Below are positions 3,171-64,000 of a stretch of 64,000 nucleotides of DNA, piece after piece (position 1 is the first letter of the stretch; every line of letters starts with the position of its first letter). The stretch spans positions 1,659-65,658 of the forward strand of contig CAYLLA010000002.1 of the NCBI GenBank assembly GCA_964384555.1. Direction: 5' to 3'. The notes under the pieces were generated by a model. The model was not told where the DNA came from and did no database searches. It saw nothing but the letters and a program-made list of their open reading frames with translations. Origin of the DNA: an uncultured Ruminococcus sp. (GTDB taxonomy: Bacteria; Bacillota; Clostridia; Oscillospirales; CAG-272). The position numbers were made by a program, and so were the translations under genes.

Positions 3171-3485
<315 letters not shown>

Positions 3486-3497
3486 GGACAAAAGTAA

Positions 3498-5156
<1,659 letters not shown>

Positions 5157-6614: not shown

Positions 6615-7571
6615 TTGTATAGGATAGGCATTGACCTTGGCGGAACCAACATCGCCGTAGGACTTGTTGATGAAAATATGAATATCGTTGAAAAGCAGAG
6701 CACACCGACTCTTGCCGAGCGCGATCCGCTTTGCATAGTTGACGATATGGCTGCGCTCTGCCGCAAGGTGGCAGAGGCTCACGGCATTTCAATTGGCGAT
6801 GTGGAGTCGGTAGGCGTAGCCTCCCCCGGTATCGCCAACGATCACAGCGGCCGTATAGAGTACGCAAACAATCTGCCGTTCAGACAGTTCCCGCTTGCAG
6901 CTCTCTTGGCGGAAAGGCTTGGGAATGTCTCGGTGCATCTTGCCAACGATGCCAATGCCGCCGCGTGGGGCGAGGCCGTTGCGGGCGCCGCAAAGGGAAC
7001 GAGCGATTCTGTTATGATCACCCTCGGCACCGGAGTCGGTGGCGGTGTTATTATCGATAACAGGATACTTACAGGCTTTAATAATGCGGGCGGCGAGCTT
7101 GGTCACATCGTTATCGCCGCGGGCGGCAGACCCTGCTCTTGCGGTCGCCGTGGTTGTTGGGAGGCCTACAGCTCCGCCACAGCCATGATAAACATGACCC
7201 GCGAAAAGCTTGAGGAGTGCCAAAAGAGCGGACGGCACACTCTTATCGAGGATATGGTGCGCGAGCGCGGTAAAATTTCCGGCCGCACGGCATGCGATGC
7301 CATGCGCGCGGGTGACGAGGCGGCGGCAGAGGTCTTTCACGAGTATCTCCACTACCTTGCCTGCGGACTTGCCAACATCATAAATATATTCCAGCCTGAG
7401 ATAATCTCGCTGGGCGGCGGCATCTCAAACGAGGGCAATTTCCTGCTTGAGCCGCTGATCCCGCTCGTGCGTGCCGAGCAGTACGGCGGCGGACTGGTCA
7501 GCGTGACCGATATACGCATCGCGCAGCTTGGCAATGATGCCGGCATCGTTGGTGCGGCAATGCTTAAATAA
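6615..7571 (+). CDS. ROK family sugar kinase (glucokinase-like)
   Basis: YRIGIDLGGTNIAVGLVD ATP-binding N-terminus and CSCGRRGCWEAY zinc motif. The start is set to the in-frame TTG at 6615, which lies 6 nt after GGGAGG; the ATG at 6570 has no SD. Confidence 0.8.
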   Translation: MYRIGIDLGGTNIAVGLVDENMNIVEKQSTPTLAERDPLCIVDDMAALCRKVAEAHGISIGDVESVGVASPGIANDHSGRIEYANNLPFRQFPLAALLAERLGNVSVHLANDANAAAWGEAVAGAAKGTSDSVMITLGTGVGGGVIIDNRILTGFNNAGGELGHIVIAAGGRPCSCGRRGCWEAYSSATAMINMTREKLEECQKSGRHTLIEDMVRERGKISGRTACDAMRAGDEAAAEVFHEYLHYLACGLANIINIFQPEIISLGGGISNEGNFLLEPLIPLVRAEQYGGGLVSVTDIRIAQLGNDAGIVGAAMLK

Positions 7572-7689
7572 TTAAAAATGACAGAGCGATGGGTGCGCAC
7601 TTGGGCGGACCTATCGCTCTGTGCGGCTTTGGGGCCGAATGCTTGATATCAATATTCTGCCGCCGCGGGCGGCAAAAACGGAGTTACCC

Positions 7690-9123
7690 ATGAAAAACAC
7701 AAACACAAACAAAAGCACTTATGTATTAACAAATGGAGTGATCCTTGACGGCACTCGAAATATGGAGCCACAGCGAGGCAAGGCGATATTGGTGCGCGAC
7801 GGTAAAATTGCCGAGATCATGCCGAGCGAGCGCGTGCCGAGCGGCGCGGAGAGGGTGGATCTTGGCGGCAAGTATATAATGCCGGGTCTTATCAACATGC
7901 ATGTTCACCTGGCAGGCAGCGGCAAGCCGCAAAAAAAGCAACGCGACAATGCTCGGCTGGTGGATATGATAATGAGCACTGCTCTGACTCGCTCCGTGGC
8001 CTACAAAATGGTTGGCGGCTTTGCGCTGACCGAGCTTGCAAGCGGAGTTACCACCATCCGCACGGTCGGCGGACTTGGTAGTTTTGATTCCCGCCTGCGC
8101 GATGATATTGCCGCAGGGCGCTGCCGCGGACCGCGTATTCTGGCCGCAAATGAGGGCATATCCGTCCCCGGCGGACACATGGCGGGTTCGGTCGCGGTAG
8201 CGGCACACAACAACGATGAGGCACTGGCACAGCTTGAGCGTGCACGCGCCCAGGGCGTTGACCTTGTAAAGCTGATGGTAACGGGCGGCGTTTTGGACGC
8301 CAAGGAAAAGGGGACTCCGGGCGAGTTGAAGATGCCGCGGGAGATGATACGTGCGGTGTGCGATGCGGCGCACAAAATGGGCTACAGTGTGGCGGCGCAT
8401 GTTGAATCAACGGAGGGCGTGCGCGCGGCACTTGAGGGCGGCGTTGACTCTATCGAGCACGGAGCCAAGCCGGATGCCGAGATAATCTCGCTCTTTAAAG
8501 AGCGCGGCGCGTTTTTGTGCACAACGCTCTCTCCGGCGCTTCCTTACGCGCTGTTTGACAGGTCGATCTCAAACGCCTCCGAGGTCGAGCAGTTCAACGG
8601 TAATATGGTATTTGAGGGGATAATCGATTGCGCCCGCGCGGCACTTGAAAATGATATCCCGCTGGTGCTTGGTAACGATGTTGGATGCCCCTGGATCACG
8701 CAATATGATTTTTGGCGCGAGCTTTATTACTTCCATAAATTCGTGGGAGCGGAAAACTCCTTTGCCCTTTATACCGCAACAGCACGCAGTGCCGAGCTTG
8801 CGGGTATTGGGAATATTACCGGCAGTATAGCCCCCGGGCTTGCGGCGGATATGATAGTTACTGCCGCCGACCCGCTGGCCGACCTTCGTGCGCTCCGCCA
8901 TGTTGATATGGTGATAGCACGCGGGGAGATAATGGCCGACCCCAAATTTAAGCGCCGCAAAAATGTTGAGGCGGAGCTTGATAAGTTTCTTTGTTGCTCG
9001 CATCACACAAAATATAACACGACCCGCCCCGCGCAGACCATCGCCTGCGCGGGGCGGGTTTTAGTGTTTGTATCTACGAATTTGCGGCGGCCATCTGGCG
9101 GTGCTTCATTTGGCGCCAACTGA
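7690..9123 (+). CDS. Metal-dependent amidohydrolase family protein
   Basis: PGLINMHVHL (HxH) and downstream His/Asp motifs. The Met at 7690 has GGAG 7 nt upstream. The last 34 codons read through a terminator hairpin (see findings). Confidence 0.7.
   Translation: MKNTNTNKSTYVLTNGVILDGTRNMEPQRGKAILVRDGKIAEIMPSERVPSGAERVDLGGKYIMPGLINMHVHLAGSGKPQKKQRDNARLVDMIMSTALTRSVAYKMVGGFALTELASGVTTIRTVGGLGSFDSRLRDDIAAGRCRGPRILAANEGISVPGGHMAGSVAVAAHNNDEALAQLERARAQGVDLVKLMVTGGVLDAKEKGTPGELKMPREMIRAVCDAAHKMGYSVAAHVESTEGVRAALEGGVDSIEHGAKPDAEIISLFKERGAFLCTTLSPALPYALFDRSISNASEVEQFNGNMVFEGIIDCARAALENDIPLVLGNDVGCPWITQYDFWRELYYFHKFVGAENSFALYTATARSAELAGIGNITGSIAPGLAADMIVTAADPLADLRALRHVDMVIARGEIMADPKFKRRKNVEAELDKFLCCSHHTKYNTTRPAQTIACAGRVLVFVSTNLRRPSGGASFGAN
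9022..9062. terminator. Bidirectional-looking GC-rich hairpin between convergent genes
   Basis: Perfect 15-bp stem acccgccccgcgcag / ctgcgcggggcgggt, 8-nt loop, then ttt on the plus strand. It lies 12 nt downstream of the pnuC stop on the minus strand. Confidence 0.7.
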
Positions 9124-9802
9124 TATATGCGTAGATATCGTTAAACAAAAACGCCGTAAAGCAGACAGTTACCGATATATAGGTGCTGTCCTTGACAGAT
9201 GCAAGTGACCACAGGATGATAAGTATCACATCGTTGGCCGCATAGGCGAGCGAAAACAGCTCACTGCGCCTGAATGTAAGGTACGCGGCAAGAAAGCTCG
9301 TGGTAACGGATATCGTACTCGGCAGCATATTGGCCGTGCCGAGCGCATCCAGGATAAAATAAAAGCCAAGCGTTACCGCCGCGGTAAGAGCGAACATCAG
9401 GGGGATCTCGCGGCGACCGAGGTGACCCACCTTTACCTCCGAGCGGCGACCGTTAAACGGATTTTTAAGCCATGATATAAGCGACAGGACCGCCATTGGG
9501 GCTGTCATGCCGAGGTAGGTGATCATCTCGCCGTAATAGGAAAAGCCAAGGGATATTATGCCGTAAAGCACGCTGAAAAATATCATAAAAAGCTGCCCCA
9601 GCGGGTTGCCCTTGGCGGTAAGCATCAAGGAGCTGACACCGATGAGCGAGGCGGCGAGCGTTATAAAATTGCGGCGGTCGAATATCAAAAAGGATGATAT
9701 TATCAGCAAGCAGGAGACTGAAAACAGTACCGCATCAAATCTCATGCGTGATCTTGGCGACGGTGCGTGGGCGGCGGGGGAGCTTTGTTTGCTTTTTTTC
9801 AT
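9074..9802 (-). CDS. pnuC: PnuC-family nicotinamide riboside transporter
   Basis: Seven or eight TM segments. WLKNPF, FLAAYLTFRR and FLFNDIYAYISW resemble PnuC signatures. The Met at 9802 follows AAAGGAG. Confidence 0.7.
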   Translation of the reverse strand: MKKSKQSSPAAHAPSPRSRMRFDAVLFSVSCLLIISSFLIFDRRNFITLAASLIGVSSLMLTAKGNPLGQLFMIFFSVLYGIISLGFSYYGEMITYLGMTAPMAVLSLISWLKNPFNGRRSEVKVGHLGRREIPLMFALTAAVTLGFYFILDALGTANMLPSTISVTTSFLAAYLTFRRSELFSLAYAANDVILIILWSLASVKDSTYISVTVCFTAFLFNDIYAYISWRQMKHRQMAAANS

Positions 9803-9850
9803 TTTAATTTGATCTCCTTTCGTTTTGGAGCGCCGAGGCACTCCCGGGGC

Positions 9851-9907
9851 AGAAAAAACAGCACCCGCCGCACATCTTCTATGACCTAACGATGTGCGGC
9901 GGATGCT
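9851..9907 (-). terminator. Intrinsic terminator inside the pnuC 5' leader (attenuator or riboswitch expression platform)
   Basis: On the minus strand: agcatccgccgcacatc - 14-nt loop - gatgtgcggcgggtgct (17 bp including one G-U), then gUUUUUU. It lies about 50 nt upstream of the pnuC ATG, and no upstream same-strand gene exists for it to terminate. Confidence 0.7.
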
Positions 9908-10009
9908 TATTGCATCTCTACCCGGTGGCAGATATTATTTTTCTTTTGTGGCATGGCGGCGTTCTTTGCAAAAGATATTGTAAGACCCTCGCCACTGCCG
10001 AACGGAAAG

Positions 10010-10038
10010 ATTATATCATATCCCGCCGCCGCTGTCAA
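10010..10038 (-). promoter_or_regulatory. Consensus SigA promoter of pnuC
   Basis: On the minus strand: TTGACA (10038-10033), 17-nt spacer, TATAAT (10015-10010). Confidence 0.75.
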
Positions 10039-10049
10039 CCCCGCGCGGC

Positions 10050-10078
10050 TTGAATTTTTCATCACCGGGTGATATAAT
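10050..10078 (+). promoter_or_regulatory. SigA promoter of the two-component/VTC operon
   Basis: TTGAAT (10050-10055), 17-nt spacer ending TGa, TATAAT (10073-10078). It is back-to-back with the pnuC promoter. Confidence 0.65.
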
Positions 10079-10204
10079 TTTATTGAACCGATCCTGCAGT
10101 GACCCGTGCGAGCACTTTTTTAGCTGGATTTAAGGTTCGTGGTGTATTATTTATCCTGACGATACTCGTCGGCTTTGGGATCGATCGGGTGAGGAGGAAA
10201 GACT

Positions 10205-10903
10205 ATGAAGCTTTTACTTGCCGAGGATGAGCGTGCGCTCTCCGATGCATTGGTGGTAATACTTAAGCACAACGGCTACAGCGTAGATGCCGTTTGCAAT
10301 GGTGAGGAGGCACTTGAGTATCTCGCCTGCGGAGAGTATGACGGCGTGATACTTGATATAATGATGCCGCGCGTGGACGGTATTGAGGTCCTGCGCAGGA
10401 TACGCGCGGCGGGAAATGCCGTCCCTGTTTTGATGCTTACCGCCAAGAGCGATATCGATGACAGGGTAAAGGGACTTGACTGCGGCGCGGATGATTACCT
10501 TACAAAGCCCTTTGCGACCCGCGAGCTGTTGGCGCGACTGCGTGCCATCACTCGCCGCAGTGGCGGGCGAGCCGCAAACATCCTAAAGGTTGGGGACCTT
10601 ACCCTTGATTGCTCGCAATTTGCGCTTTGCTGTGCGGGCGGCAAGCTTGCGCTGACCGCAAAGGAGTTTGGCATTATGGAGCTGCTAATGCGCTCGCCCG
10701 GGCGCGTTATCTCGGCGGAGCGGATAATGGACAGCATTTGGGGCAGTGACAGCGATGCCGAGATCAGCGTGGTGTGGACGTATCTTTCCTACCTGCGCAA
10801 AAAGCTAAAGCTTTTGGGGTCGCGTGCAAGCATCCGCGTGGTGCGAAATATCGGATATACGCTGGACTGCGGCACTGATGGCGGGGAGGCCGAAAATGTG
10901 TAG
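10205..10903 (+). CDS. OmpR-family response regulator
   Basis: Receiver domain (LLAEDE, ILDIMMP, LTAK) plus a winged-helix C-terminus; GAGGAGG RBS. Confidence 0.9.
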   Translation: MKLLLAEDERALSDALVVILKHNGYSVDAVCNGEEALEYLACGEYDGVILDIMMPRVDGIEVLRRIRAAGNAVPVLMLTAKSDIDDRVKGLDCGADDYLTKPFATRELLARLRAITRRSGGRAANILKVGDLTLDCSQFALCCAGGKLALTAKEFGIMELLMRSPGRVISAERIMDSIWGSDSDAEISVVWTYLSYLRKKLKLLGSRASIRVVRNIGYTLDCGTDGGEAENV

Positions 10904-17271: not shown

Positions 17272-17282
17272 ACGCTCACCTC

Positions 17283-17717: not shown

Positions 17718-17753
17718 CCTCTTACCTCCGTGAGTCAAATTCTTTACTATATT

Positions 17754-18054: not shown

Positions 18055-18083
18055 TTGACTCTACTTTTCTTTTGTGGTATAAT
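18055..18083 (+). promoter_or_regulatory. SigA promoter of the acyltransferase gene
   Basis: TTGACT, 17-nt spacer ending TGg, TATAAT. Confidence 0.7.
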
Positions 18084-18105
18084 GAAGCCAAGGAGGACAC
18101 GTACC

Positions 18106-40098: not shown

Positions 40099-40109
40099 GG
40101 ATATTGTTG

Positions 40110-43074: not shown

Positions 43075-43079
43075 ATGCT

Positions 43080-44124
<1,045 letters not shown>

Positions 44125-44126
44125 TT

Positions 44127-45320: not shown

Positions 45321-45323
45321 GTG

Positions 45324-46447
<1,124 letters not shown>

Positions 46448-46449
46448 TT

Positions 46450-47343
46450 TTATAAACCCGCCTTCTTTTTGATATACAATGTCAATAATAATCCCGCCGG
46501 CGTACACAGTACCGTCAGCAGTTTTTTGGGTGATTCTTTTATATAGTGTTTGTTGTGCGCGAGGGTACTGCTTGAGCAATAATGGATGCAATCGATGATC
46601 AGTCGTTTAAAAGATTCGGGGTAACGCATCTTTATAGTGCGCCAAAACGCAAAACCTTTTGGGTTCTTCAAATATTGGCGCAGCATGTTGTTGCTTGACC
46701 CATCCGGCTGATACTCGACATTACAGAGTACTGTATTGAGTACCGCAAGTTTGTAGTCCTGATCTATGAGTAGATATTTATAAGCAAGGCTTACATATTT
46801 TTCGCCTTCAAATGTAGGGTACTCGGGGTAAGAATTGATTACATCTGTACGATATACAAGTTTTTTATCGCCGGAGCCGCCGCGGGCATAATATCCCGAG
46901 AGAGTTGTTTCGTCAAGTCCATCCGGAAAGGCGCTGCCAATTATGTTGCCGTCAAGATCTGCATCTATCCCCACCAATCCGGCATAGTCGCGGGCTTTTA
47001 CTTCTGTCCATTTTGTAATTATCTTTTCTACCGCGCCATCACTTAACATGTCATCCGAATCGATGCACGTGTTAAGTTCTGTGTGTATGGCTGCGTATGC
47101 GACATTATGTGCAGTGTGCATGCCGCCATTCTCTTTGTAAATGTACTGTATTTCAAAGCCGTTATCCCGCTGTTGCCATTCCCTAACAAGCTCGGCGGTG
47201 TTGTCTGTTGAGCCATCATCTACAATGAGCCAAATAAAATCTTTGCAGTTTTGGCGGCAAAGGCTTTTATATGTCCGCGGCAGGGTATGTGCGCGGTTGT
47301 ATGCCGGCGTAAAGATCGTAAGTGTCGTTTTATTATTGCTCAT
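46450..47343 (-). CDS. GT2 glycosyltransferase
   Basis: LTIFTPAYNRAHTLPRTYKSLCRQNCKDFIWLIVDDGSTD. Confidence 0.85.
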   Translation of the reverse strand: MSNNKTTLTIFTPAYNRAHTLPRTYKSLCRQNCKDFIWLIVDDGSTDNTAELVREWQQRDNGFEIQYIYKENGGMHTAHNVAYAAIHTELNTCIDSDDMLSDGAVEKIITKWTEVKARDYAGLVGIDADLDGNIIGSAFPDGLDETTLSGYYARGGSGDKKLVYRTDVINSYPEYPTFEGEKYVSLAYKYLLIDQDYKLAVLNTVLCNVEYQPDGSSNNMLRQYLKNPKGFAFWRTIKMRYPESFKRLIIDCIHYCSSSTLAHNKHYIKESPKKLLTVLCTPAGLLLTLYIKKKAGL

Positions 47344-48430
47344 ATGCTTTTAAATAAAACTCCTGTAATTTTATAGCCTCATTGGAAATATCAAACTCGT
47401 GTGCGGCGATTTCGGTGCGCCTGTCCCGGCGCGGTGTGTTCCTCAGCTCGAGTATTGCCCGGGCAAAGGCTTCTGTGCCGGCGGAGAGGGGGGAGACATT
47501 AACAAGATCCTTACAAAGTACGCATTCCGCCGGTACTTTATCCGATATAACGCAAGGTAGACCTGCGGCTTGTGCCTCGACCATCGTGACCGGCAGTCCC
47601 TCATAAAGCGATGGAAAGGCGAAAACATCCATAGTTTGCATAAGCTCCGCAATGTCACTTCTCACACCGAGAAAACGCACCTTATCGGCAATGCCGAGGT
47701 CGCTTGCCTGCTGCTGCGCTCGTGCCATGCCGTCGCCGCCACCTGCGAGAAGTAGTGTGGAGTTGGGCTCTTGCTTGAGTAAGGCCGCAAACGCGTTGAT
47801 CAAAAATGGGTGGTTCTTGGGTGGGTTGAACCTTCCGACATGACCGACAACAAAACTGTTTCCCAGCTCGAGCATATCTCGCACCGTGTTACGTGTGCAC
47901 GGATCATAGGCATATTTCGTGGCATCAATGGCATTGTTGATGACCGCATAGGGGACATCGCCGAACATCCATTTTCCGGCTTCATTGCCGCAGGCAAATA
48001 GGGTGGTAGCATATTTTGATATGCTTCTTTTATACCACAGCTTTATCGGATATTTTAAATTTTTATCTTGATTGGAGCTATGGCTATGCGCTATTCGAAC
48101 AGGAACCGAGTGCACTTTAGCGGCTTTAAGTGCTACAGAACTAAGACAATCTTGGTGGACGTGAACGATCTTATAGTCGCGATGAGTGTCAAAAAAAATA
48201 TTCAAGGCATTTAAGTAGGTGCGACTCCATGGCACGAGCCTTGGCAGACGGAAGATCTTGGCGCCCAATGCTTCTATCTCATCGTCATAGGCGCCGCGCT
48301 CCTCGCGATGAACTATAAAATCAAATTGAACTTGGCTGCGGTCGATCTGTCTGTAATAGTTCATCAGCATAGATTCAAGTCCGCCGCGGTTCATTTGTGT
48401 TACGATCTGCAGAACACGTATGGGTGGCAT
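47333..48430 (-). CDS. Glycosyltransferase family 4 (GT-B)
   Basis: IRVLQIVTQMNRGGLESM and C-terminal EGLPVTMVEAQA. Start taken at the Met at 48430. Confidence 0.8.
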   Translation of the reverse strand: MPPIRVLQIVTQMNRGGLESMLMNYYRQIDRSQVQFDFIVHREERGAYDDEIEALGAKIFRLPRLVPWSRTYLNALNIFFDTHRDYKIVHVHQDCLSSVALKAAKVHSVPVRIAHSHSSNQDKNLKYPIKLWYKRSISKYATTLFACGNEAGKWMFGDVPYAVINNAIDATKYAYDPCTRNTVRDMLELGNSFVVGHVGRFNPPKNHPFLINAFAALLKQEPNSTLLLAGGGDGMARAQQQASDLGIADKVRFLGVRSDIAELMQTMDVFAFPSLYEGLPVTMVEAQAAGLPCVISDKVPAECVLCKDLVNVSPLSAGTEAFARAILELRNTPRRDRRTEIAAHEFDISNEAIKLQEFYLKAYEQ

Positions 48431-48431
48431 G

Positions 48432-49538
48432 TTATCCTCCAAACTGTGCGAAGTATTCCGATACGGTAAGACGTGAGAAATATTCATCAAACGGCTGATT
48501 GATTACATTGGAGTAATAGAAATACGCGCTGTAACCGAGCAGCATACAGATAGTGAGTATCCTGCCGTCTCGTCCGCCAATTTTTTTCATCAACCAAGGC
48601 AGCGATAGCGACTGGAACAGGATAAAGTAGTTTGCCAGGCGCGCAAAGTAGTTGGCTGTGCCGAAAAGTCCAACAAACATTATGGCTCCGTTGAGCATCG
48701 TAAAGTTCATGATAAGGTTATCCGCTTCTGTGCTGTCCTTAAATATCCTGTCACGGTACAGCCATGACAAAACGGTTGGAACATTGCAAACCAACACACG
48801 GAATATGTTAACACCATCGCCGCTGAAAGACTCAAGAGTGTATTCCTCGCCAAGCATCGTGGTTATATCCACGATGGTACCAAGTAACGGGCGCAAAAGA
48901 ATGCCGCCGATGATCGCTCCAAACACAAGAATATACGAACCGTGGCTCCAAGGGCGAAATTTGAGTATCGGTACCAAGAAGAAGAGCAGAGAATAGGGGT
49001 GTATAAATGTGGCTATAAGTATACATACGGTATAGATCACCCACTTCTTTTTTAATGCAAACATTACGCCGAGCATGGATATTCCCATGGCGGCGGCTTG
49101 CTTGATCCCCGCGGCGGCAAAAAGATACCCGCCGGCAGTAAAGATCAAAAAAATAGTTAAAGGATAATCAACGGAGTACCTATGCAAAAATGCCAGGTAA
49201 CAAGCCACGGTCAAAAACGCCCAAAACATTAAAAAGTTTTGAGTGGATACCCCCGCCATTCTCAACCAGTAGTTTATTATATTAAACAGCGGGTTGGCAC
49301 CCGGGCTCATATCTCTCCCATCAAGATAGCCCTCTGTAATAAGCTCGTAAGCCCAAGTATAGGCAGTAGTGTCATTGCAATGCGTGCGCAGACCGATATA
49401 CCCCGCCATGAGAATGACAAGGCAAACGGTGAAAAAAACACTCCTGTGCTGAATTTCCGCGGGTCTGTTTTTGTATTTTATATCTGCCAGCCAGGCAAGT
49501 ATCAGAGCTATAAAAAATAGGGTGAGAAGATCAGCCAT
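48432..49538 (-). CDS. EpsG/Wzy-like polysaccharide polymerase
   Basis: 368 aa, about 10 TM segments, located in a Wzx-dependent locus. Confidence 0.6.
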   Translation of the reverse strand: MADLLTLFFIALILAWLADIKYKNRPAEIQHRSVFFTVCLVILMAGYIGLRTHCNDTTAYTWAYELITEGYLDGRDMSPGANPLFNIINYWLRMAGVSTQNFLMFWAFLTVACYLAFLHRYSVDYPLTIFLIFTAGGYLFAAAGIKQAAAMGISMLGVMFALKKKWVIYTVCILIATFIHPYSLLFFLVPILKFRPWSHGSYILVFGAIIGGILLRPLLGTIVDITTMLGEEYTLESFSGDGVNIFRVLVCNVPTVLSWLYRDRIFKDSTEADNLIMNFTMLNGAIMFVGLFGTANYFARLANYFILFQSLSLPWLMKKIGGRDGRILTICMLLGYSAYFYYSNVINQPFDEYFSRLTVSEYFAQFGG

Positions 49539-56492: not shown

Positions 56493-57716
56493 TTATTTGA
56501 CAGTGACTTTCTTGTAGGCTTTTTTGCCGCGGCGGAAGACTATTCCCGCACGCAGTGCATCGCCTGTGTATTTTGCCTTAAGATCCGTCACCTTTTCGCC
56601 GTCGGCGGAAACACCGCCCTGCTCAACGGCGCGGCGTGCCTCTGATTTGGAGGCCACAAGTCCCGCCTTTACAAGGATGGTGAGTATATCCATGTCGCCC
56701 GCCTCGTCAAGATCCGCGGCGGAAAGCTCGGTGGTGGGGATGGCGGCATCCGCTCCAGCTCCAAAGAGGGCGCGTGCGCTCGCCTCGGCGCGTTCTGCCT
56801 CCTCCTTGCCGTGAACAAGCGAGGTGAGCTCAAAGGCCAGTATCTCCTTTGCGCGGTTAAGATCGCTGCCCTGCCAGCCGTTCATTTCGTTTATCTGCTC
56901 CATAGGCAGGAATGTCAGCATGCGGATGCACTTAAGCACGTCATCATCGCCAACGTTGCGCCAGTACTGATAAAAGTCGTAGGGGCTGGTCTTTTTGGGA
57001 TCGAGCCAAACGGCGTTGCCCGCGGTCTTACCCATCTTTTTGCCCTGCGAGTCGGTAAGCAGGGTAATGGTCATGGCGTGGGCATCCTTACCCAGCTTGC
57101 GGCGGATAAGCTCTGTGCCGCCCAGCATATTGGACCACTGGTCATCGCCGCCAAACTGCATGTTGCAGCCGTACTTTTGGAAGAGATAATAAAAGTCGTA
57201 GGACTGCATTATCATGTAGTTGAATTCAAAGAAGGAGAGACCCTTTTCCATGCGTTGCTTGTAGCACTCGGCGCGCAGCATGTTGTTGACAGAGAAGCAT
57301 GCGCCGACCTCGCGCAAAAGCTCAACATAGTTGAGGTCAAGCAGCCAGTCGGCATTGTTGACCATTTGAGCCTTGCCCTCGCCGAATTCGATAAAGCGCT
57401 CCATCTGACGGCGGAAGCATTCCGCGTTGTGATCTATATCCTCGCGTGTCAGCATCTTGCGCATGTCGGTACGACCGGAGGGGTCGCCTATCATCGTTGT
57501 GCCGCCGCCGATAAGAGCTATGGGCTTGTTGCCCGCCATTTGCAAACGTTTCATAAGCGTGAGCGCCATAAAGTGGCCCGCCGTCAGGCTGTCGGCAGTG
57601 CAGTCAAAGCCGATATAAAACTTTGCCTTGCCCTCGTTCACCATACTGCGGATCTCGTCCTCGTTGGTTACTTGGGCTATGAGACCGCGCGCCCGGAGTT
57701 CTTCGTAGATAGTCAT
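56493..57716 (-). CDS. tyrS: Tyrosine--tRNA ligase
   Basis: MTIYEELRARGLIAQ, HIGH-like LTAGHF, KMGKT (KMSKS), and a C-terminal S4 domain. Confidence 0.95.
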   Translation of the reverse strand: MTIYEELRARGLIAQVTNEDEIRSMVNEGKAKFYIGFDCTADSLTAGHFMALTLMKRLQMAGNKPIALIGGGTTMIGDPSGRTDMRKMLTREDIDHNAECFRRQMERFIEFGEGKAQMVNNADWLLDLNYVELLREVGACFSVNNMLRAECYKQRMEKGLSFFEFNYMIMQSYDFYYLFQKYGCNMQFGGDDQWSNMLGGTELIRRKLGKDAHAMTITLLTDSQGKKMGKTAGNAVWLDPKKTSPYDFYQYWRNVGDDDVLKCIRMLTFLPMEQINEMNGWQGSDLNRAKEILAFELTSLVHGKEEAERAEASARALFGAGADAAIPTTELSAADLDEAGDMDILTILVKAGLVASKSEARRAVEQGGVSADGEKVTDLKAKYTGDALRAGIVFRRGKKAYKKVTVK

Positions 57717-57818
57717 TTTATTTTCCTTTCGGGGATGTTTTGTGCGTTTTTGTGCGATGGCCGTCACCGGTGTGCGGGGGGGCGTATCGATCGATCCGTC
57801 CGTGCCGGCGGCTGATCA

Positions 57819-59351
57819 TCATTGACCCGTCATCGCCTCGTTTATCTTTTTGATGCTTGCGTTCATAACGGATGCGATGGACTTTGCATTGCGCGCCCAA
57901 CCGGAGGCCGTGTTGTTTTTAACGGCATTGCGGAAGGGGGCGTAGGAGTTATTGGCAAGAGGTGTGGTGAATATACGTCCAAGGTCCATAACGACCGTGC
58001 GCTTTATCATGTCATACATCACGCTGTCGTCGGGGCTTTCGGAATAGCGTATCTTCATCGACTGCTCAAACAGTGCGGGTGTTACTCTGCGGTAGCCCTC
58101 GGATCCCATGCATTCAAGCACGGCGGCGGCCGCATCGGCATCACGTGCCTTTACTGATACCGAGTAAAGCGTGTAGGGGAATGCCATGCAGGTCTTGTAT
58201 TCCGTCTGGTTAAGATCGTATTTCGGTATGGGCAGGAGGCCGTATTTAAAGCTTTCGGATCCGTCCTTGAGAGAGCCGGAGGCTATGTAAACACGGTCGA
58301 TGGTGAATATCGTCTGCTCGGCAAGGAATGCCTGCACAGAGGACTGATTGCTTACCGTGCCCTTGGCGTAAGCGTACCCGCTGGAGTGCAGGAAGTTTGT
58401 AACCTTTTCAAGCAGATTTGCGGTCTTCTCTCCTGTATAATCGGGGGAGATAGCCAGCTCGCCATCGGCGTTTTTGATAACAGAGCCGATATCCGAGCCG
58501 ATAAAGAATGCATCAAAGTGCAGATCTATCGTTTCAAAGCCGTAAAAATCGCCGTAGTCAACAAGTCCGTTGCCGTTATCGTCGCGATAAATGCCTTGGC
58601 ACAGCTCGATCAGCTTATCGATAGTCCACTTGCCCTCGTTTGCGATGGCGTAAAGATCGGCCACCGTCATATCCGAATGATGATCCACAAACAGGGTCTT
58701 GTTAAAGAATGTTGCGTACATCATGTAAAGCATGTTGGTGGAGATATCGCCGGAGGTGAAGTACAGCTTGCCATTTATCGTTGCGCTGTCGGTAAGGCTT
58801 TCCGGCCACCAAGGCTTTTCAAAATCAATGTGATCGAGCGCCAGCAGGTTTTGGGTAAGACCGTTCATTGCAAGCGTTGCGGCCGTCATGCTGTAGCCGG
58901 CAAAGATATCATATCCGCCGCCGGCGGCAACACTGTTTGTAGCGGCCTCAACAAAGCCCTTTTGATTGTTAAAGTTGCCCTTTGTTCCCACCCAATCGAG
59001 GGTAACGCCCAGGCGCTCTTCAACCTTTTTATTGCGCTCTATAAGTCTTGAGTTGACGATATTGCCGTCATTTTGATCTTCCTCAATAAAAAACTCGGGG
59101 CGCTCAACATCAGACCAGTACAAAAACGTGACTGTGTCGTTTATCTTAAGTGTCTCGGGCAGATCGTCATCCACAAAGGCGCTGGTGGTCTCCGGGGTGG
59201 CGGGGTCGCTCGTGTTGGGGAGAGTCGTGTCATCGGGGTCGGGCGTTTGGTCGTTTGCGCAGGCAGTAAAGGTCAGCGCAAGCGTGGTGAGAGTGGCAAG
59301 AGCCGCCAGCGCGGCAATGATTCTTTGGAACATCTTTGTACTTTGCTTCAT
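57819..59351 (-). CDS. ABC-transporter extracellular solute-binding lipoprotein (sugar type), orphan
   Basis: Lipobox FTAC and a 510-aa family-1-like SBP. No permease or ATPase gene is adjacent. Confidence 0.65.
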   Translation of the reverse strand: MKQSTKMFQRIIAALAALATLTTLALTFTACANDQTPDPDDTTLPNTSDPATPETTSAFVDDDLPETLKINDTVTFLYWSDVERPEFFIEEDQNDGNIVNSRLIERNKKVEERLGVTLDWVGTKGNFNNQKGFVEAATNSVAAGGGYDIFAGYSMTAATLAMNGLTQNLLALDHIDFEKPWWPESLTDSATINGKLYFTSGDISTNMLYMMYATFFNKTLFVDHHSDMTVADLYAIANEGKWTIDKLIELCQGIYRDDNGNGLVDYGDFYGFETIDLHFDAFFIGSDIGSVIKNADGELAISPDYTGEKTANLLEKVTNFLHSSGYAYAKGTVSNQSSVQAFLAEQTIFTIDRVYIASGSLKDGSESFKYGLLPIPKYDLNQTEYKTCMAFPYTLYSVSVKARDADAAAAVLECMGSEGYRRVTPALFEQSMKIRYSESPDDSVMYDMIKRTVVMDLGRIFTTPLANNSYAPFRNAVKNNTASGWARNAKSIASVMNASIKKINEAMTGQ

Positions 59352-59505
59352 GGTACCGTCCTCCTGTGATAAATGGTGGCCTGTGGCCTTGTTACCGATT
59401 TAATTATACAGTGTTTTAAATGGATTGTCAATACCTGCAATATATAAAATAAACTTATCCTTTAATGCTCTCGCGGGGGAGTGCGGGTGCGCGGTCTGCG
59501 TGCCT

Positions 59506-60261
59506 TTATGCCGCGAGCATGTCAAGCGCAGCGGTAACTATGTTCATGGCGCCGCTGACGGCCATGAAGATATAAACGTATTTTTTGATCTTTTTGCCGT
59601 CAAGACGGTCAAATACCCGCCCGCCGAGCCAAAGCCCCAGCGCCATGCCGATAACGCCGACCGCAAAATAAACGATCACGTTTTTGGTAACAAAGCCGGC
59701 GGCCACCTTGACGCATATCGAGTAGATATTGGATATCGTAAAGTAGGCCTGTATCGTGGCCATATAGTGCTTTGTATCCTGCTCGGATTCCATATAGTAT
59801 ATAACAACGGGAGGTCCGCCCATTGAAAACAGACCGCCGAGAATGCCGGAAAGGCAGCCGCAAATCAGTCCGCCGTACCATGTGGGGCGGATATGTATCT
59901 TTTTTGAAAATACCAAAAAGTAAATGCTCAGCAGTATCAGTGCCGCACCAAGCAGCATGCGCAGCAGTGCATCCCCCTGACCCTTCATAAAGTTGACGGT
60001 GATAAAAATAAACGCCATGTTGCCGATCATGGGGAAGACGAGATTCTTCCAGTTGATGTCGCGGAACATCCTTGCCGCAACGGCAAGCGACATCAGCATC
60101 GAAAGCATGGTGCTGAGCGCGTTTGCCTCGGTGTAGAGGGGCAAAACATAGGGGAGGAACGTCATGGCAAAAATGCCGAAACCAAACCCCGACACACGCT
60201 GAATAAAGCATGCGCCAAAGGCAATGAGTGCTATAAGGATCAGTTGCAGAGAGGTGTCCAT
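59506..60261 (-). CDS. TauE/SafE-family anion exporter
   Basis: 251 aa, eight TM segments, FIQRVSGFGFG. Confidence 0.7.
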   Translation of the reverse strand: MDTSLQLILIALIAFGACFIQRVSGFGFGIFAMTFLPYVLPLYTEANALSTMLSMLMSLAVAARMFRDINWKNLVFPMIGNMAFIFITVNFMKGQGDALLRMLLGAALILLSIYFLVFSKKIHIRPTWYGGLICGCLSGILGGLFSMGGPPVVIYYMESEQDTKHYMATIQAYFTISNIYSICVKVAAGFVTKNVIVYFAVGVIGMALGLWLGGRVFDRLDGKKIKKYVYIFMAVSGAMNIVTAALDMLAA

Positions 60262-60374
60262 CTTTGTGTGCTCTTTTCAAAAAAGATATATATGAATATA
60301 AAAAACATATAACTTATTTTAACACAATTCGCACGCCGTGTCAAGCACGCAAAGCTGTCTTTTTGCCGCGCATG

Positions 60375-60590
60375 TCATGCACTTCGCGGTTGCGGGCGAG
60401 GCTCGACCCGGACATACGGGGCGGGATCGGAGAAATAGAAAGAGCGGATTTCCTCACATCCATCGCCGCTTTTAAGATCCTCATCAGAAAGGATCTCGTC
60501 CGGTTCTTTCTCGGTCGGTTCGATGATCTCATCACCCTTTTCTTGCTGTCCGTAGGTCAATGCTTCCTTGTCATTCATTCGCTTCGTCAT
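60375..60590 (-). CDS. Hypothetical small acidic protein
   Basis: Begins MTKRMNDKEALTYGQQEKGDEIIEPTEKEPDEIL and lies after the cassette terminator. Weak evidence. Confidence 0.3.
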   Translation of the reverse strand: MTKRMNDKEALTYGQQEKGDEIIEPTEKEPDEILSDEDLKSGDGCEEIRSFYFSDPAPYVRVEPRPQPRSA

Positions 60591-60601
60591 TATATGATCA
60601 A

Positions 60602-60631
60602 AGCAGGTGTACCTACTGCGGTACACCTGCT
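60602..60631 (-). terminator. Hairpin terminating the DUF4417 cassette
   Basis: 12-bp perfect stem agcaggtgtacc / ggtacacctgct, 6-nt loop, 16 nt after the stop at 60647. The T tract is weak. Confidence 0.55.
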
Positions 60632-60646
60632 TCTACCGGTTTAGAC

Positions 60647-60970
60647 TTACTCTAACGCTTTCAATCTATCTGTTTCAAAATCCTCGATCACAAAACTGCC
60701 ATCATTGATTGCGTTTAAGCGAGAGACTATTTGTGCGATAAGATCAAGCATAACTTCTTTTTCAGCCTTTTCTTTTTCGTGATTAAACCAACAAGGTTGA
60801 TTATGCGAATCAAACTCGTAATAATCATCAAACATATCGGAAGCTTGTTTGCAGTAGTTTTGCAGAATTGTATCTTCTTCGATAATTGGCAAATCATCAG
60901 TTATGATTCCATCTTCGTATGTCCATATAGGACTGTGTAAAAACTCGTTCATGATTTTAATTACAACCAT
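60647..60970 (-). CDS. Acidic 107-aa protein, candidate immunity/antitoxin partner
   Basis: Asp/Glu-rich. AAAGGA RBS. Its start lies 6 nt after the stop of the alternative frame of the upstream gene. Confidence 0.4.
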   Translation of the reverse strand: MVVIKIMNEFLHSPIWTYEDGIITDDLPIIEEDTILQNYCKQASDMFDDYYEFDSHNQPCWFNHEKEKAEKEVMLDLIAQIVSRLNAINDGSFVIEDFETDRLKALE

Positions 60971-61070
60971 AATTATTTATCCTTTCTTTTTTGGATATGC
61001 TGAGACAACAAATCCATTCGTGCCCAAACCAGTAATTACATGGTAGTTGCCCTCATAATAATAGGTTCGT

Positions 61071-61424
61071 TCATAGCATTCGCGAGATCTTTTTTTTAAC
61101 AAGCTTGTTATCAATCACTGTGCCCTTGCTAATTACTTTTTCTAAAAAACTCGGGATCTGATCTCGCGATACTCCAAAAGCTTTTTTAAAATCCACAGCG
61201 TGTCCCGGGGTTTGTCCATTACCGTCAAGTATATGCTTCAAGCCCGCGTATGGACTACCTGTTTCAAGCCACACCGTTTGCCCTGTTTCATCTTGGGTTA
61301 TGAACACAAGATTCTCTTTGGTGAATTTTACACCGTTTTTCTCCAAATCTGCAATCAGGGCCTCTGCAACATGGTTTCTTTCACCATTGGTTCTGCCAAA
61401 TCCGCCGTGATATCCTGTACCCAT
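61071..61424 (-). CDS. Small nuclease-toxin-like protein, apparently truncated by an A8 frameshift
   Basis: MGTGYHGGFGRTNGE...GSPYAGLKHILDGNGQTPGH. Its start overlaps the upstream stop (TGATG). The -1 frame after A8 continues for 35 codons (…YYYEGNYHVITGLGTNGFVVSAYPKKKG). Confidence 0.45.
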   Translation of the reverse strand: MGTGYHGGFGRTNGERNHVAEALIADLEKNGVKFTKENLVFITQDETGQTVWLETGSPYAGLKHILDGNGQTPGHAVDFKKAFGVSRDQIPSFLEKVISKGTVIDNKLVKKKISRML

Positions 61425-62089
61425 CAGGCGATCACCGCCTTTCGACTTTGCATATAGTCACTGTCGAATTGCAGTATTTCTATGCCCATAGCTTTATACT
61501 TGGCAAATATGTAATCAGGTGCAGTTCCATATACGACGATTGCTGTCGGCTCTAATGTATCAACCACATAGTTTAAGCCGTCTTTGAAATATTTTCGCTC
61601 GGTCAGTAGCTTTATGCAACCGTGAGAGCCTACTGCAATGACACCATGCTTATTAACGCCTGCACAAGACGCTTCAAATGTTCGTTCATCCCCAAAGCGT
61701 ATGTTGGGAATGACGGATACGCCATGCTCCTGTAACCAACAACCGATTGCTCTGCTTCGGTAAATATTCCATTGTTGCATTACCAATGGCATATCTCTAT
61801 AGACGCTGAAATCGGGAGAAATAACGCCCTTGAACTTCTTTAGAATTGGGAGATATTTGTTCGGCCTATTCCATAATCTCTCAAAAACAGCATCGTCCTC
61901 GTAGAAATGTACCCAAGCATCATAAGAGGTGTGGTTAATGGCTTTTGAAAATGCTGTCAGCTTTTCCGGCTTCTTTAGTTCGTTTTTTAAACAAGGGATT
62001 TCAAGCGAACTATCATAGGTCGCATTTTTGACTAAAAATGCGTGAAAAACATCTTTGCACCCACTACGAGTGCAATTTTCTTTTGACAT
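61424..62089 (-). CDS. DUF4417-like protein
   Basis: VHFYEDDAVFERLWNRPNKYLPILKKFKGVISPDFSVYRDMP...VIPNIRFGD. Family recalled from memory. AAGGAGG RBS. Confidence 0.5.
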   Translation of the reverse strand: MSKENCTRSGCKDVFHAFLVKNATYDSSLEIPCLKNELKKPEKLTAFSKAINHTSYDAWVHFYEDDAVFERLWNRPNKYLPILKKFKGVISPDFSVYRDMPLVMQQWNIYRSRAIGCWLQEHGVSVIPNIRFGDERTFEASCAGVNKHGVIAVGSHGCIKLLTERKYFKDGLNYVVDTLEPTAIVVYGTAPDYIFAKYKAMGIEILQFDSDYMQSRKAVIA

Positions 62090-62221
62090 ATATTATGCCT
62101 CCTTATTTGTTGAATTGCAAAATATTTTTGAATTTTTTCGATTTTCCTTGCAATTTCTCTCTAGATGTGGCATAATAAATATAGCGACATATTGGATGCT
62201 CACATCCAAAGAGAAGGCACG

Positions 62222-62247
62222 TTGTGAATTGTTGCAGCAATTTACAA
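62222..62247. promoter_or_regulatory. 26-bp palindrome, candidate operator or weak terminator
   Basis: TTGTGAATTGTTG|CAGCAATTTACAA, with 11 of 13 arm positions complementary (the other two are G-T). It lies between immA-like and DUF4417-like genes. Confidence 0.35.
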
Positions 62248-62317
62248 TGTGCTTTTTCTTTTTTGCTTTCTTACAATCAAACAACATCACCGTCCTTTCC
62301 TTAAATTTATATTTATA

Positions 62318-62869
62318 TTACACAGCTTTATAAAAAAGCTGAAGCAATCGTAATTCGTAATCGGTATAGTCCTTATAGCCGTAAGTTAACCATTTCCGAT
62401 AATAGTTGAGTGCATAACATGCCGCCTCAAAGCTCACGTTAAAGATATTGGCAATATCATGCGGATCATCTAATTTCAACTTGTGTACCAGCACAGGCGG
62501 AACAAGTGCATATTTGGCAAAGAAATTCACTTCTTTATCTGCAAGTTCGCTATCCTCGCTGTGGTCTAAAGCACTATGACCTATTTCATGCATGATCGTA
62601 TTGTTGATACGGCCATATTCTTTTTTGTCATTATAATAAATGTACTGCTCTCCGGTGTTCTTCTCCACCAAAAATCCATCTTCGCTCTTTTTCAAAAGAA
62701 GCCATTGTTTGCTTTGGTGTATTGCCGAATACGGAATGACCTTAATGCCCATTTTGGTTGCAAGTTCAAACCCATTCACAGGCACACAGCAAACGTTGTA
62801 TTTCACAAATAAATCAACAACGATCCGCTTGATCTCTTCACACCTTGCGTGTGATAAAGAAATTCCCAA
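62318..62869 (-). CDS. ImmA/IrrE-family (COG2856) metallopeptidase
   Basis: TIMHEIGHSALDH HExxH motif, directly downstream of an XRE gene. Confidence 0.85.
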   Translation of the reverse strand: MGISLSHARCEEIKRIVVDLFVKYNVCCVPVNGFELATKMGIKVIPYSAIHQSKQWLLLKKSEDGFLVEKNTGEQYIYYNDKKEYGRINNTIMHEIGHSALDHSEDSELADKEVNFFAKYALVPPVLVHKLKLDDPHDIANIFNVSFEAACYALNYYRKWLTYGYKDYTDYELRLLQLFYKAV

Positions 62870-62871
62870 TA

Positions 62872-63183
62872 TTACTCCTCCCCTAACAATACTTTGATCA
62901 ATTCTCTTTTTTCCTGTTCTGTCATGGAAGAGGCGTTTCGTGCAATCATGCGTCGAATGCCGTAGTGGTTATATTCTGTGCATTCGATACCGAGCAAAAA
63001 ATCGGATGTGGTGTGGAGAGCTGTAGCCATGTTTGCTAATGTATCCGGTTTGGGTTCTCGATCACCGGAAATATATCTGGAGATTACGGCTTCCGTTACT
63101 CCTATGCACTCGGCTAATTCTTTCTGAGTCATGCCTTGTTTTTTCAAAGCTTTGGTTATACGTGAGCCTAATTCCTTTCCCAT
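62872..63183 (-). CDS. XRE-family helix-turn-helix regulator (ImmR-like)
   Basis: MTQKELAECIGVTEAVISRYISGDREP. The Met at 63183 follows AAAGGGG. Confidence 0.88.
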   Translation of the reverse strand: MGKELGSRITKALKKQGMTQKELAECIGVTEAVISRYISGDREPKPDTLANMATALHTTSDFLLGIECTEYNHYGIRRMIARNASSMTEQEKRELIKVLLGEE

Positions 63184-63224
63184 GATGGTGCCCCTTTCTG
63201 TGATCATATCTCGATCGCAATTGA

Positions 63225-63253
63225 ATTATATCACATACTTGCCAATTTGTCAA
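63225..63253 (-). promoter_or_regulatory. Consensus SigA promoter of the XRE/ImmA cassette
   Basis: On the minus strand: TTGACA (63253-63248), 17-nt spacer ending TGa, TATAAT (63230-63225). Confidence 0.75.
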
Positions 63254-63846
63254 GTTATTTTGCCTCTTCTGGGAAAATATTTATATAGTGTCACAATAGA
63301 TGCGAGACTTAAAAGTAAAAAAAGTACAAAGTGAGCGAGTCCTGTTAAAGCGGAAATACCCCAGATAGCAATACCTCGATCACATCAAGCAACATTGCAG
63401 CGGAAGGTATCCTGCCCCGCTCGGTGAAGGATGGCTTAATACCTACCTTGCCGATGGGGATGAACAAGCGCAAGAAATGCTGACCTCTCAGACGGCATAG
63501 CTTGCCAAGACTTACGTTGTCGATCAACACATCAAAGAGACCGATCAAATGAGGTGGTTGGATACTCTGCGGCAGACGGGACTTTATGAAGATACTTTTC
63601 GGAAAGTCATACGACGAATAACAAGTGATCGCTGTCCCGCGGGGCAGCGATCTTCTTTAGCGGCAGGCATTCGAATAAAAATTCCCATTCATAAAGCGGG
63701 GCGGGCGGCGCAAAATAGTAGCAGAGAACGCGATACGCCGAAGCGCCTACAGCGCCGGACGCCGCAAAGTGTCACGGCATACGCGGACTCAATTAATATA
63801 GATCGTGAGCATCCGCGTATGCGAGTGCACACACAAGGAGTTTAAA

Positions 63847-64000
63847 ATGTCCAACAATAAGAATCTTGTTCCCGAAGCTAAGGCTGCACTTGATAAGTTT
63901 AAGATGGAGGCCGCAGGTGAGGTCGGTGTTGATCTTGCCAACGGTTATAACGGTGATCTTACCTCCCGTCAGGCCGGCTCTGTTGGCGGTCAGATGGTAA
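63847..64000 (+). CDS. Alpha/beta-type small acid-soluble spore protein, 3' end cut by window edge
   Basis: MSNNKNLVPEAKAALDKFKMEAAGEVGV...LTSRQAGSVGGQMV; AAGGAG RBS. Confidence 0.9.
   Translation, partial: MSNNKNLVPEAKAALDKFKMEAAGEVGVDLANGYNGDLTSRQAGSVGGQMV

Follow-up and report, generated by a model that had tools for sequence, protein, structure and literature searches.

SOS-induced colicin operons are toxin-immunity-lysis units under the control of LexA. A different kind of switch, consisting of a helix-turn-helix (HTH) repressor and an M78 peptidase, is known from the ImmR/ImmA, CapH/CapP and DdrO/IrrE pairs, and in CapP the C-terminal GAF domain and the inter-domain groove serve the sensing of single-stranded DNA (ssDNA; bioRxiv 10.64898/2026.05.16.725639). 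The toxin domain of the Serratia marcescens BWH57 CdiA-CT protein (7M5F) is described as a BECR-fold RNase whose candidate catalytic residues are H47, E51, H52 and R89, and for which no RNase substrate is reported (PMC8616854). DUF4417 has been described as a partner, enriched in phages, in fusions with the ParB-CTPase fold, which is the only functional mention of the family that was found (bioRxiv 10.1101/2025.10.10.680097), and the literature searched does not link it to toxins. The locus considered here brings relatives of these parts together. It is a five-gene cassette on the minus strand of a 64,000-nt stretch of DNA (the window) from an uncultured Ruminococcus sp. (Clostridia; Oscillospirales; CAG-272; GenBank assembly GCA_964384555.1, contig CAYLLA010000002.1, positions 1,659 to 65,658 of the forward strand), and encodes, in order and behind one promoter, an XRE-family repressor, an M78 peptidase, a DUF4417 protein, a small toxin-like effector and an acidic 107-aa protein. 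Comparison with its relatives suggests that the island carrying this cassette is one allele of a polymorphic toxin-immunity system, in which the XRE/M78 switch, a regulatory spacer, DUF4417 and a short effector leader are constant and the toxin and immunity genes variable; the probability of this reading is put at roughly 0.6.

Two sets of loci were compared. The toxin-selected set derives from a one-genome-per-species scan of 185,579 species genomes (114 relatives, 80 loci analysed by means of fresh open reading frame (ORF) calls and iterated hidden Markov models (HMMs)), and the DUF4417-selected set from a metagenome search with DUF4417 clade 1 alone, which is unbiased with respect to toxin (311 relatives, 80 loci analysed). 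Wherever the start of the gene following DUF4417 can be read in the latter set (∼71 of 80 loci), its product begins MG[AT]G[FYV]HGGFGx(G)TxG, and only nine of the 80 loci encode the BECR domain. All sets pooled yield 121 leader-bearing effectors directly 3′ of DUF4417, of which the 108 complete ones form 15 C-terminal clusters unrelated to one another. These include BECR, Ntox50 (E = 1.2e-27) and DUF6883 (E = 8.6e-14) domains, one cluster with a JAB-like HxH...S..D motif and two with HExxH motifs; for at least eight of the 15, Pfam gives no significant match. Clusters of the ORF downstream correspond essentially one-to-one to the toxin clusters (BECR 42/42, others 8/8 and 7/8, then 5, 3 and 3). 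Loci with different toxins are 93–100% identical in DNA across the 3′ end of DUF4417 and the first 30–45 nt of the effector gene, and ∼25% identical thereafter; recombination breakpoints, as read from these alignments, lie at the leader/toxin junction.

Displaced modules are found as well. One locus (L060) carries a full DUF4417 gene and one toxin, followed by a 55-aa DUF4417 3′ fragment, a leader, a BECR toxin and its immunity gene; another (L013) has a leader-Ntox50 gene and, behind it, a broken BECR toxin without a leader, together with its immunity gene. An orphan immunity gene lies behind a DUF6883 effector in L194, and L039 contains tandem units. In L225, L226, L230–L233 and L241 the leader runs straight into an IMM107-like immunity domain (135 aa) and a toxin domain is missing, which looks like toxin loss with immunity retained. 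At L263:9001-10265 DUF4417 is followed by a leader-DUF6883 protein (136 aa) and DUF4926 (61 aa), an arrangement suggesting that DUF6883 and DUF4926 are a toxin-immunity pair; a 480-aa protein without a Pfam family stands there in place of XRE/M78. Judged on sequence, the cassette thus bears the genetic hallmarks that define a polymorphic toxin system, namely a constant N-terminus with varied C-termini, a co-varying putative immunity gene, a breakpoint at the junction and orphan modules. The combination of DUF4417, leader and XRE/M78 in such a system is apparently absent from PADLOC, NCBIfam and the searchable literature, and the separate parts are of kinds already known.

The leader residues are conserved, in percent, as M100 G100 A71 G100 [F47/Y36] H86 G100 G98 F98 G92 x T88 x G88. 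Every invariant glycine uses all four Gly codons among 94 distinct DNA versions, and the leader is under selection at the protein level. Its residues 1–11 are predicted to be disordered (pLDDT <50) in an AlphaFold2 (AF2) model, and a literature search on leader motifs found nothing relevant. In one chromosomal toxin family (L246, L249, L253) an L27/Prp-like cleavage motif, ..NLQFFA↓.., directly follows the leader. The leader YHGGFGRTNGER itself loosely resembles the N-terminal tail of mature ribosomal protein L27 (..GGSTRNGRDS); this likeness, and that of the Prp motif, may be a low-complexity coincidence.

The original prediction had proposed the acidic ORF as partner of the toxin, and the strict covariation with this toxin type bears it out. 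The 107-aa family follows the toxin in 86 of 90 toxin loci, and other toxin types have other partners. The protein has no match in Pfam, the PDB, PADLOC or NCBIfam, nor any HTH or other DNA-binding domain according to Pfam, and it behaves as the putative cognate immunity partner of the BECR toxin. Homology to CdiI-BWH57 was considered and rejected, neither the single sequence nor a 48-sequence profile matching anything in the PDB, and an apparent K5/W16/D25 coincidence was dropped.

These data bear on whether toxin and partner are no more than an ordinary two-gene toxin-antitoxin addiction pair lying next to unrelated XRE, ImmA and DUF4417 genes. A small basic toxin paired with an acidic partner would suit such a pair, and ∼12 loci show toxin and immunity alone, among them L007–L010, four assemblies of one ksgA-ispDF region, several of the others being cut by contig ends. 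This explanation is nevertheless very improbable in view of the leader common to 15 toxin types, all behind DUF4417, the overlap of the DUF4417 and toxin stop and start codons, the lack of a DNA-binding domain in the immunity protein and a unit that normally comprises three to five genes. Moreover, 76 of 90 toxin loci keep DUF4417 in front of the toxin, in spite of an identity of only 20–25% between the linked DUF4417 proteins of different clades.

The complete order XRE>M78>DUF4417>toxin>immunity was scored in 32 toxin-selected loci. Among loci with enough upstream sequence, XRE and M78 lie 5′ of DUF4417 in 36 of 57 genome loci and in 47 of 55 DUF4417-selected metagenome loci, so that the recurrent linkage of DUF4417 to the regulator pair, which the original prediction had put up for checking, holds. 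The XRE stop and M78 start are −4 to +4 nt apart in most of 79 loci, and the gap between M78 and DUF4417 has a median of ∼200 nt in the same loci. Hosts are gut and rumen bacteria of several phyla: Clostridia, Lachnospiraceae, Bacilli, Erysipelotrichaceae, Anaeroplasma, Coriobacteriia, Bifidobacteriaceae, Bacteroidaceae (Bacteroidales), Fibrobacter, Synergistales and Ruminobacter. The neighbours of the cassettes are housekeeping genes, and one relative adjoins a Fic gene and an MmeI-type restriction-modification gene. It had been suggested earlier that the segment might be the stranded regulatory end of a decayed prophage or integrative and conjugative element (ICE); ImmR/ImmA pairs mostly stand at the head of such elements, the segment is rich in AT and DUF4417 belongs mainly to phages (508 phage records). 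This can effectively be ruled out, because the same five-gene unit recurs intact, and as such among housekeeping genes, in dozens of genomes from several phyla. The island is moreover sharply bordered, with a promoter and a terminal hairpin of its own, and searches of GenBank phages and IMG/VR gave no relative of the toxin family.

The toxin family profile (36 sequences) matches one PDB chain, 7M5F_C, the S. marcescens BWH57 CdiA-CT toxin domain, with E = 8.3e-26 (hmmsearch), and the same chain is the sole significant structural match (E = 7.6e-9, TMt 0.79; Foldseek) of an AF2 model of the toxin (pLDDT 84). Pfam PBECR1 is matched weakly to moderately by 18 of the 36 family members (best E = 8e-7); the window toxin, with its 117-aa ORF joined to the remainder, scores 19.5 bits, under the gathering cutoff of 27.6. 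Invariant family residues H64, H75 and N136 sit in motifs that align with GLQHIV..EEH and GSNGYVVGAN of 7M5F, and these motifs are expected to hold the depositor-flagged H47, H52 and N117 (PMC8616854). The domain is also found by tblastn at the C-termini of plasmid-borne hemagglutinin-repeat and ALF-repeat toxins. Profile and model together indicate that the small protein is a CdiA-CT(BWH57)-type BECR RNase toxin domain, in agreement with the earlier surmise of a small, His-dependent RNase/BECR-type toxin.

The toxin gene of the window is broken. Both halves match the toxin HMM, the frame break falls after residue ∼111 and the last β-strands are moved to another frame; intact relatives have AAAAAAGGA (KKG) where the window has a run of eight A residues (A8). 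Since an identical A8 occurs in two independent Logan assemblies, and further contigs likewise give the 117-aa product, the frameshift is a real feature of the lineage and not a read error. Among the relatives listed at a query coverage of at least ∼70%, each is a single ORF of ∼124–175 aa, with the exception of P0003, which is the 117-aa product of the same lineage. Because the toxin is frameshifted, the window copy may either be decaying with its immunity gene kept or be expressed solely via slippage on A8. A split toxin or split DUF4417 gene beside an intact immunity gene is also seen in L013, L033, L036, L045, L067 and L079, as in the window, and is consistent with recurrent inactivation of costly parts.

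The regulator pair resembles those of known defence loci. PADLOC identifies the XRE protein as capH (3e-12) and the M78 protein as capP (1e-9, over model positions 4–149 of 242 only), and the XRE protein also matches the NCBIfam RstR-family repressor (2e-15), under the model cutoff. As in CapH/CapP pairs, the HTH repressor and the M78 HExxH peptidase are encoded together, 5′ of the payload. By analogy with ImmR/ImmA, CapH/CapP and DdrO/IrrE, XRE would keep the cassette repressed until a DNA-damage, prophage-induction or infection signal activated M78, whereupon XRE would be cleaved and the payload transcribed. The spacer of ∼200 nt probably holds a regulated payload promoter or an attenuator. 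In the window it contains an imperfect hairpin of 20 bp at 62211-62258 and an AT-rich palindrome at 62113-62134, and TTG(N)CAA repeats, which also overlap the −35 element of the promoter, could be a candidate operator.

It is possible, if rather less likely, that such a switch serves an intracellular, signal-gated abortive-infection or toxin-antitoxin-like defence, in which DUF4417 would act as sensor or activator, for instance by freeing the RNase from immunity, and the toxin would stay in the cell. The capH and capP matches point in this direction, such pairs heading many defence operons, as do the relative that adjoins the Fic and restriction-modification genes and the absence of export signals from the cassette; the frequent pseudogenisation of the toxin or DUF4417 would fit a costly suicide module. 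Orphan, tandem and leader-fused immunity genes without a toxin are, however, best explained by incoming toxins, CdiA-CT and Ntox50 domains combined with recombination at a constant N-terminal handle are typical of secreted polymorphic toxins, and none of the three payload proteins has a PADLOC model. For the polymorphic toxin-immunity system favoured here it is therefore proposed that the toxins reach other cells, since orphan immunity genes are kept and immunity domains outlive the loss of toxins, and that the immunity protein would neutralise the RNase in the producer and its kin. Genetic linkage suggests that DUF4417 may work with or on the leader of the coupled effector by processing, modifying or loading it.

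The DUF4417 protein of the window matches PF14386 over its full length with 231 bits (cutoff 28.9), in a family of more than 1,800 homologues. Its AF2 model (pLDDT 87.7, pTM 0.86) has alternating β and α elements, D66, P92, D93, W118, G144 and F195 are invariant in the alignment, and from these features the protein is read as a TIM-barrel-like enzyme. The first matches outside the family in BFVD are phage "queuine tRNA-ribosyltransferase" models, which are weak (E 6e-3 to 5e-2, TM ∼0.42) but suggestive in the light of the DpdA/DpdB (ParB-like) precedent. Assignment as a TGT/DpdA-like transglycosylase was rejected as a finding and stays no more than an idea, there being no TGT among the top PDB matches and no Pfam cross-match.

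The chromosomal DUF4417 is of phage ancestry. In Streptococcus phages the gene lies just before terS, and a viral set of 80 IMG/VR contigs selected by DUF4417 reveals a parallel to the chromosomal leader. An ORF starting MG[GS]RG[ASTV].. or ..[LM]FGGRG is present in 62 of the 80 contigs, on the same strand in 61, and 54 of the 62 begin within −60 to +100 nt of the DUF4417 stop; most of the remaining contigs have variants such as LGGRGSSS, VGGRGQNF and GIGRGRGG. The C-terminal parts of these proteins are diverse and mostly orphan, a BECR toxin occurs in one of the 80 contigs, and PHROGs yielded only phrog_9479, whose function is not annotated. Chromosomal and phage leaders have the common core GG[FR]Gx[ST]xG, and by gene order the adjacency of DUF4417 and leader is strict in two evolutionary settings. 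A Prp-like motif, K[LI]NIQ[LM]F↓GGRG.., precedes the Gly core in seven phage ORFs (L113, L114, L129, L130, L135, L140 and L146); the motif is a site of Prp cleavage in L27 and in phage 80alpha virion proteins (PMC5744158).

In the isolated Streptococcus phage phiST1 (KC413988; L091:4049-4459), the ORF ST1_0024 follows DUF4417 just upstream of terS. Its frame extends upstream to MGGRGASSGMSK... (MGGRGASSG), overlapping the DUF4417 stop, and the deposited start codon is probably wrong; such mis-set starts would make the leader motif invisible in databases. ST1_0024 belongs to phrog_9479 and has a His-rich motif, DxDHxHK..PHxHxGYxH.

The phage pair of DUF4417 and MGGRGASS leader beside terS would point to a phage-derived step of cargo handling. 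DUF4417 and the Gly leader might accordingly form a device that marks or loads small effectors for co-delivery with the virion or DNA, and chromosomal cassettes would be minimal hitch-hikers, turned on by the activity of a resident or infecting phage, that load their toxin onto its particles and poison the next cell unless this has the matching immunity gene. Doubtful as it is, this virion- or DNA-coupled route is the most interesting option, because the DUF4417-leader pair is phage-derived and Prp motifs flank the leader.

Several findings count against the reading as a polymorphic toxin-immunity system. The cassette encodes neither export machinery nor a signal peptide or receptor-binding domain, and no transmembrane segment, trafficking domain or gene of a type V, VI or VII secretion system was found in or near the cassettes, so that delivery to other cells has no visible route. 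The earlier claim that the toxin has no secretion or delivery domain had overlooked the conserved 14-residue N-terminal leader, which proved more informative than any other feature. The toxin of the window, being frameshifted, may be inert. The M78 protein is a short form without the GAF domain by which CapP and IrrE sense ssDNA, and the inducing signal may thus differ from ssDNA; the regulators are co-directional with the payload, unlike those of typical CapH/CapP loci, and about one third of the toxin-selected loci have no XRE/M78, which means that gating is not obligatory. The DUF4417 model has no PDB fold match at E<1e-3 (Foldseek), its comparison with E. coli Tgt gives an hhalign probability of 0.1, and the protein has no PADLOC or NCBIfam model, NCBIfam giving no match for any payload protein. 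Finally, DUF4417 of mycobacteriophage Chy5 is followed by gp2 without a Gly leader, and the link between DUF4417 and leader is therefore not universal; the claim is confined to the chromosomal clades and the 80 IMG/VR contigs.

The layout of the cassette in the window (Table 1) contains every element of the original prediction at the coordinates given there, which had described an AT-rich unit with a perfect TTGACA-17-TATAAT promoter, an XRE repressor, a HEIGH-type ImmA/IrrE protease, a 228-nt gap with a palindrome, a DUF4417-like protein coupled by TGATG to a 117-aa ORF, an acidic 107-aa protein and a terminal hairpin. The low GC is likewise confirmed (∼39% vs ∼51% in the flanks), and the promoter in addition has an extended −10. 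The hairpin is the probable end of the transcript. It was not called by the terminator scan because only TTT comes after the stem, its T tract being weak.

Table 1. Coordinates of the accessory island and its features in the window.
Feature	Position	Strand	Evidence or remark
Whole accessory island, 2,919 bp, GC ∼40%	60364..63282	-	Replaced by 2,739-bp cassette in sister strains
Promoter TTGACA-17-TATAAT, extended −10 TG	63225..63253	-	12/12 matches; top site of promoter scan
XRE-family HTH repressor, 111 aa, ImmR/CapH-like	62872..63207	-	Pfam HTH_3 E = 1e-13
M78 (ImmA/IrrE-type) zinc metallopeptidase, 183 aa, HEIGH motif	62318..62869	-	Pfam Peptidase_M78 E = 2e-9
Regulatory spacer, 228 nt, regulator pair to payload	62090..62317	-	Length conserved across loci
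DUF4417 protein, 221 aa	61424..62089	-	PF14386 E = 8e-69
Effector leader MGTGYHGGFGRTNG, 14 residues	61383..61424	-	Consensus M-G-[AT]-G-[FY]-H-G-G-F-G-x-T-x-G
Effector/toxin gene, leader + predicted BECR RNase domain	60977..61424	-	Split by +1 frameshift
117-aa toxin ORF	61071..61424	-	TGATG overlap with DUF4417 stop
C-terminal toxin remainder, other frame, 35–45 codons	60977..61114	-	Toxin HMM match
A8 homopolymer bearing frameshift	61090..61097	-	Sequence
Immunity-type protein, 107 aa, isoelectric point 4.2	60647..60970	-	Follows BECR toxin in 42/42 scored loci
Hairpin, perfect 13-bp stem, arms 60601-60613 / 60620-60632	60601..60632	-	3′ of immunity gene

The borders of the island can be read from a sister-strain sequence (L099), in which positions 3441..4159 correspond to 64000..63283 of the window and positions 6899..10257 to 60363..57001, both at 98% identity (blastn). 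The swap has its endpoints at exactly 63282 and 60364, and comparison of the junction sequences of the window and L099 revealed neither repeats nor an integrase or recombinase; the sharpness of the swap without either indicates a self-contained accessory cassette in a variable hot spot. The flanks of related genomes, which the original prediction had proposed to search for an empty site, thus supplied clean borders, although the site itself is filled by another cassette. As had been claimed, no recombinase, capsid or conjugation genes lie near the cassette in the window or in the relative loci examined, and integrase, excisionase, structural or transfer genes and att repeats were likewise not found next to it.

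The replacement cassette (L099:4160-6898) occupies the same interval, between the small acid-soluble protein (SASP) and TauE genes, is low in GC, has its own TTGACA/TATAAT promoter and holds genes for a secreted M23 peptidoglycan hydrolase that bears SH3-like repeats and for a lipoprotein of 332 aa. These two proteins could be another antagonism/immunity pair, in which case the SASP-TauE interval would be a swap hot spot for competition genes. The α/β-type SASP gene begins near 63850 (∼63850-64000, plus strand) as read from the sequence, the syntenic L099 gene matching PF00269, and a GC-rich, 11-bp terminator-like hairpin lies at 63627-63652 in the conserved intergenic region 5′ of it. The host is a spore-forming gut bacterium of the Oscillospirales, and its TyrRS falls into one cluster, at ≥90% identity, with that of Anaerotruncus sp. 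CAG:390.

The distal part of the island (60364-60600; 237 nt) has a host-like GC content of 52%. An acidic ORF of 71–83 aa at 60375..60626 on the minus strand (MTKRMNDKEALTYGQQEKGDE...) belongs to no family and is absent from the sister-strain cassette. No orphan toxin or immunity modules were found in the window; 60364-60600 matches none of the collected toxin and immunity families significantly. Elsewhere in the window, an AT-rich patch at 16312-17738 (minus strand, GC 34–45%) contains a DUF4869 gene (E = 2e-55) overlapping that of a 324-aa protein without a Pfam family, adjoins an Acyl_transf_3 gene (18055-19191) and may be another small accessory or conflict islet. A long low-GC stretch on the minus strand (38560-49538) codes for glycosyltransferases (GT1/GT4, GT2) as well as a polysaccharide pyruvyl transferase and an acyltransferase; rather than a prophage, it is a cluster for the biosynthesis of surface polysaccharide.

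If the proposed reading is correct, these cassettes would add a new and apparently abundant class of polymorphic toxins in the anaerobes that dominate gut and rumen communities, and would extend the payloads gated by ImmA/XRE (CapP/CapH-like) pairs to toxin-immunity cassettes. DUF4417 would gain a first functional handle, being predicted to work with the Gly-rich N-terminus of the protein encoded by the adjacent gene, and the leader would be an easy criterion by which to mine new domains of toxins and immunity proteins. Should the phage link prove true, it would represent a new way of moving proteins between cells.

Among described systems, CdiA-CT/CdiI of BWH57 shares with the cassette a homologous toxin domain and an immunity gene immediately downstream. 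The cassette differs in having no CdiA filament, CdiB, VENN motif or translocation domain, its toxin being a free protein of ∼150 aa with a 14-residue leader, in an immunity family dissimilar to CdiI-BWH57 and in its mostly Gram-positive anaerobic hosts. The PBECR domains of phage polyvalent proteins (Iyer et al., 2017; PMC5512222) have the same BECR RNase fold class, a His within the N-terminal helix as well as a family that the toxin matches (PBECR1), although the cassette toxin is not part of a polyvalent protein. Like colicin operons, the cassette is a compact accessory unit of toxin and immunity and is probably damage-inducible, but its toxin has neither receptor-binding nor translocation domains, a lysis gene is absent and XRE/ImmA takes the place of LexA. 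With ImmR/ImmA (ICEBs1, phi105), CapH/CapP (CBASS and other defence operons) and DdrO/IrrE the cassette shares an HTH repressor followed by an M78 HExxH peptidase at the head of an accessory operon, whereas its 183-aa peptidase is without GAF, its genes are co-directional and its payload is a polymorphic toxin module. Unlike Rhs, CDI, LXG/T7SS (type VII secretion system) and MuF toxins, it has a constant part of only ∼14 residues, predicted to be disordered, a constant partner that is a separate DUF4417 protein rather than a secretion or trafficking domain, and an XRE/ImmA switch without a linked secretion system. It nevertheless shares with all four the constant N-terminus, variable toxins, downstream immunity, breakpoint at the junction and displaced orphan modules, and with MuF toxins also the association with phages.

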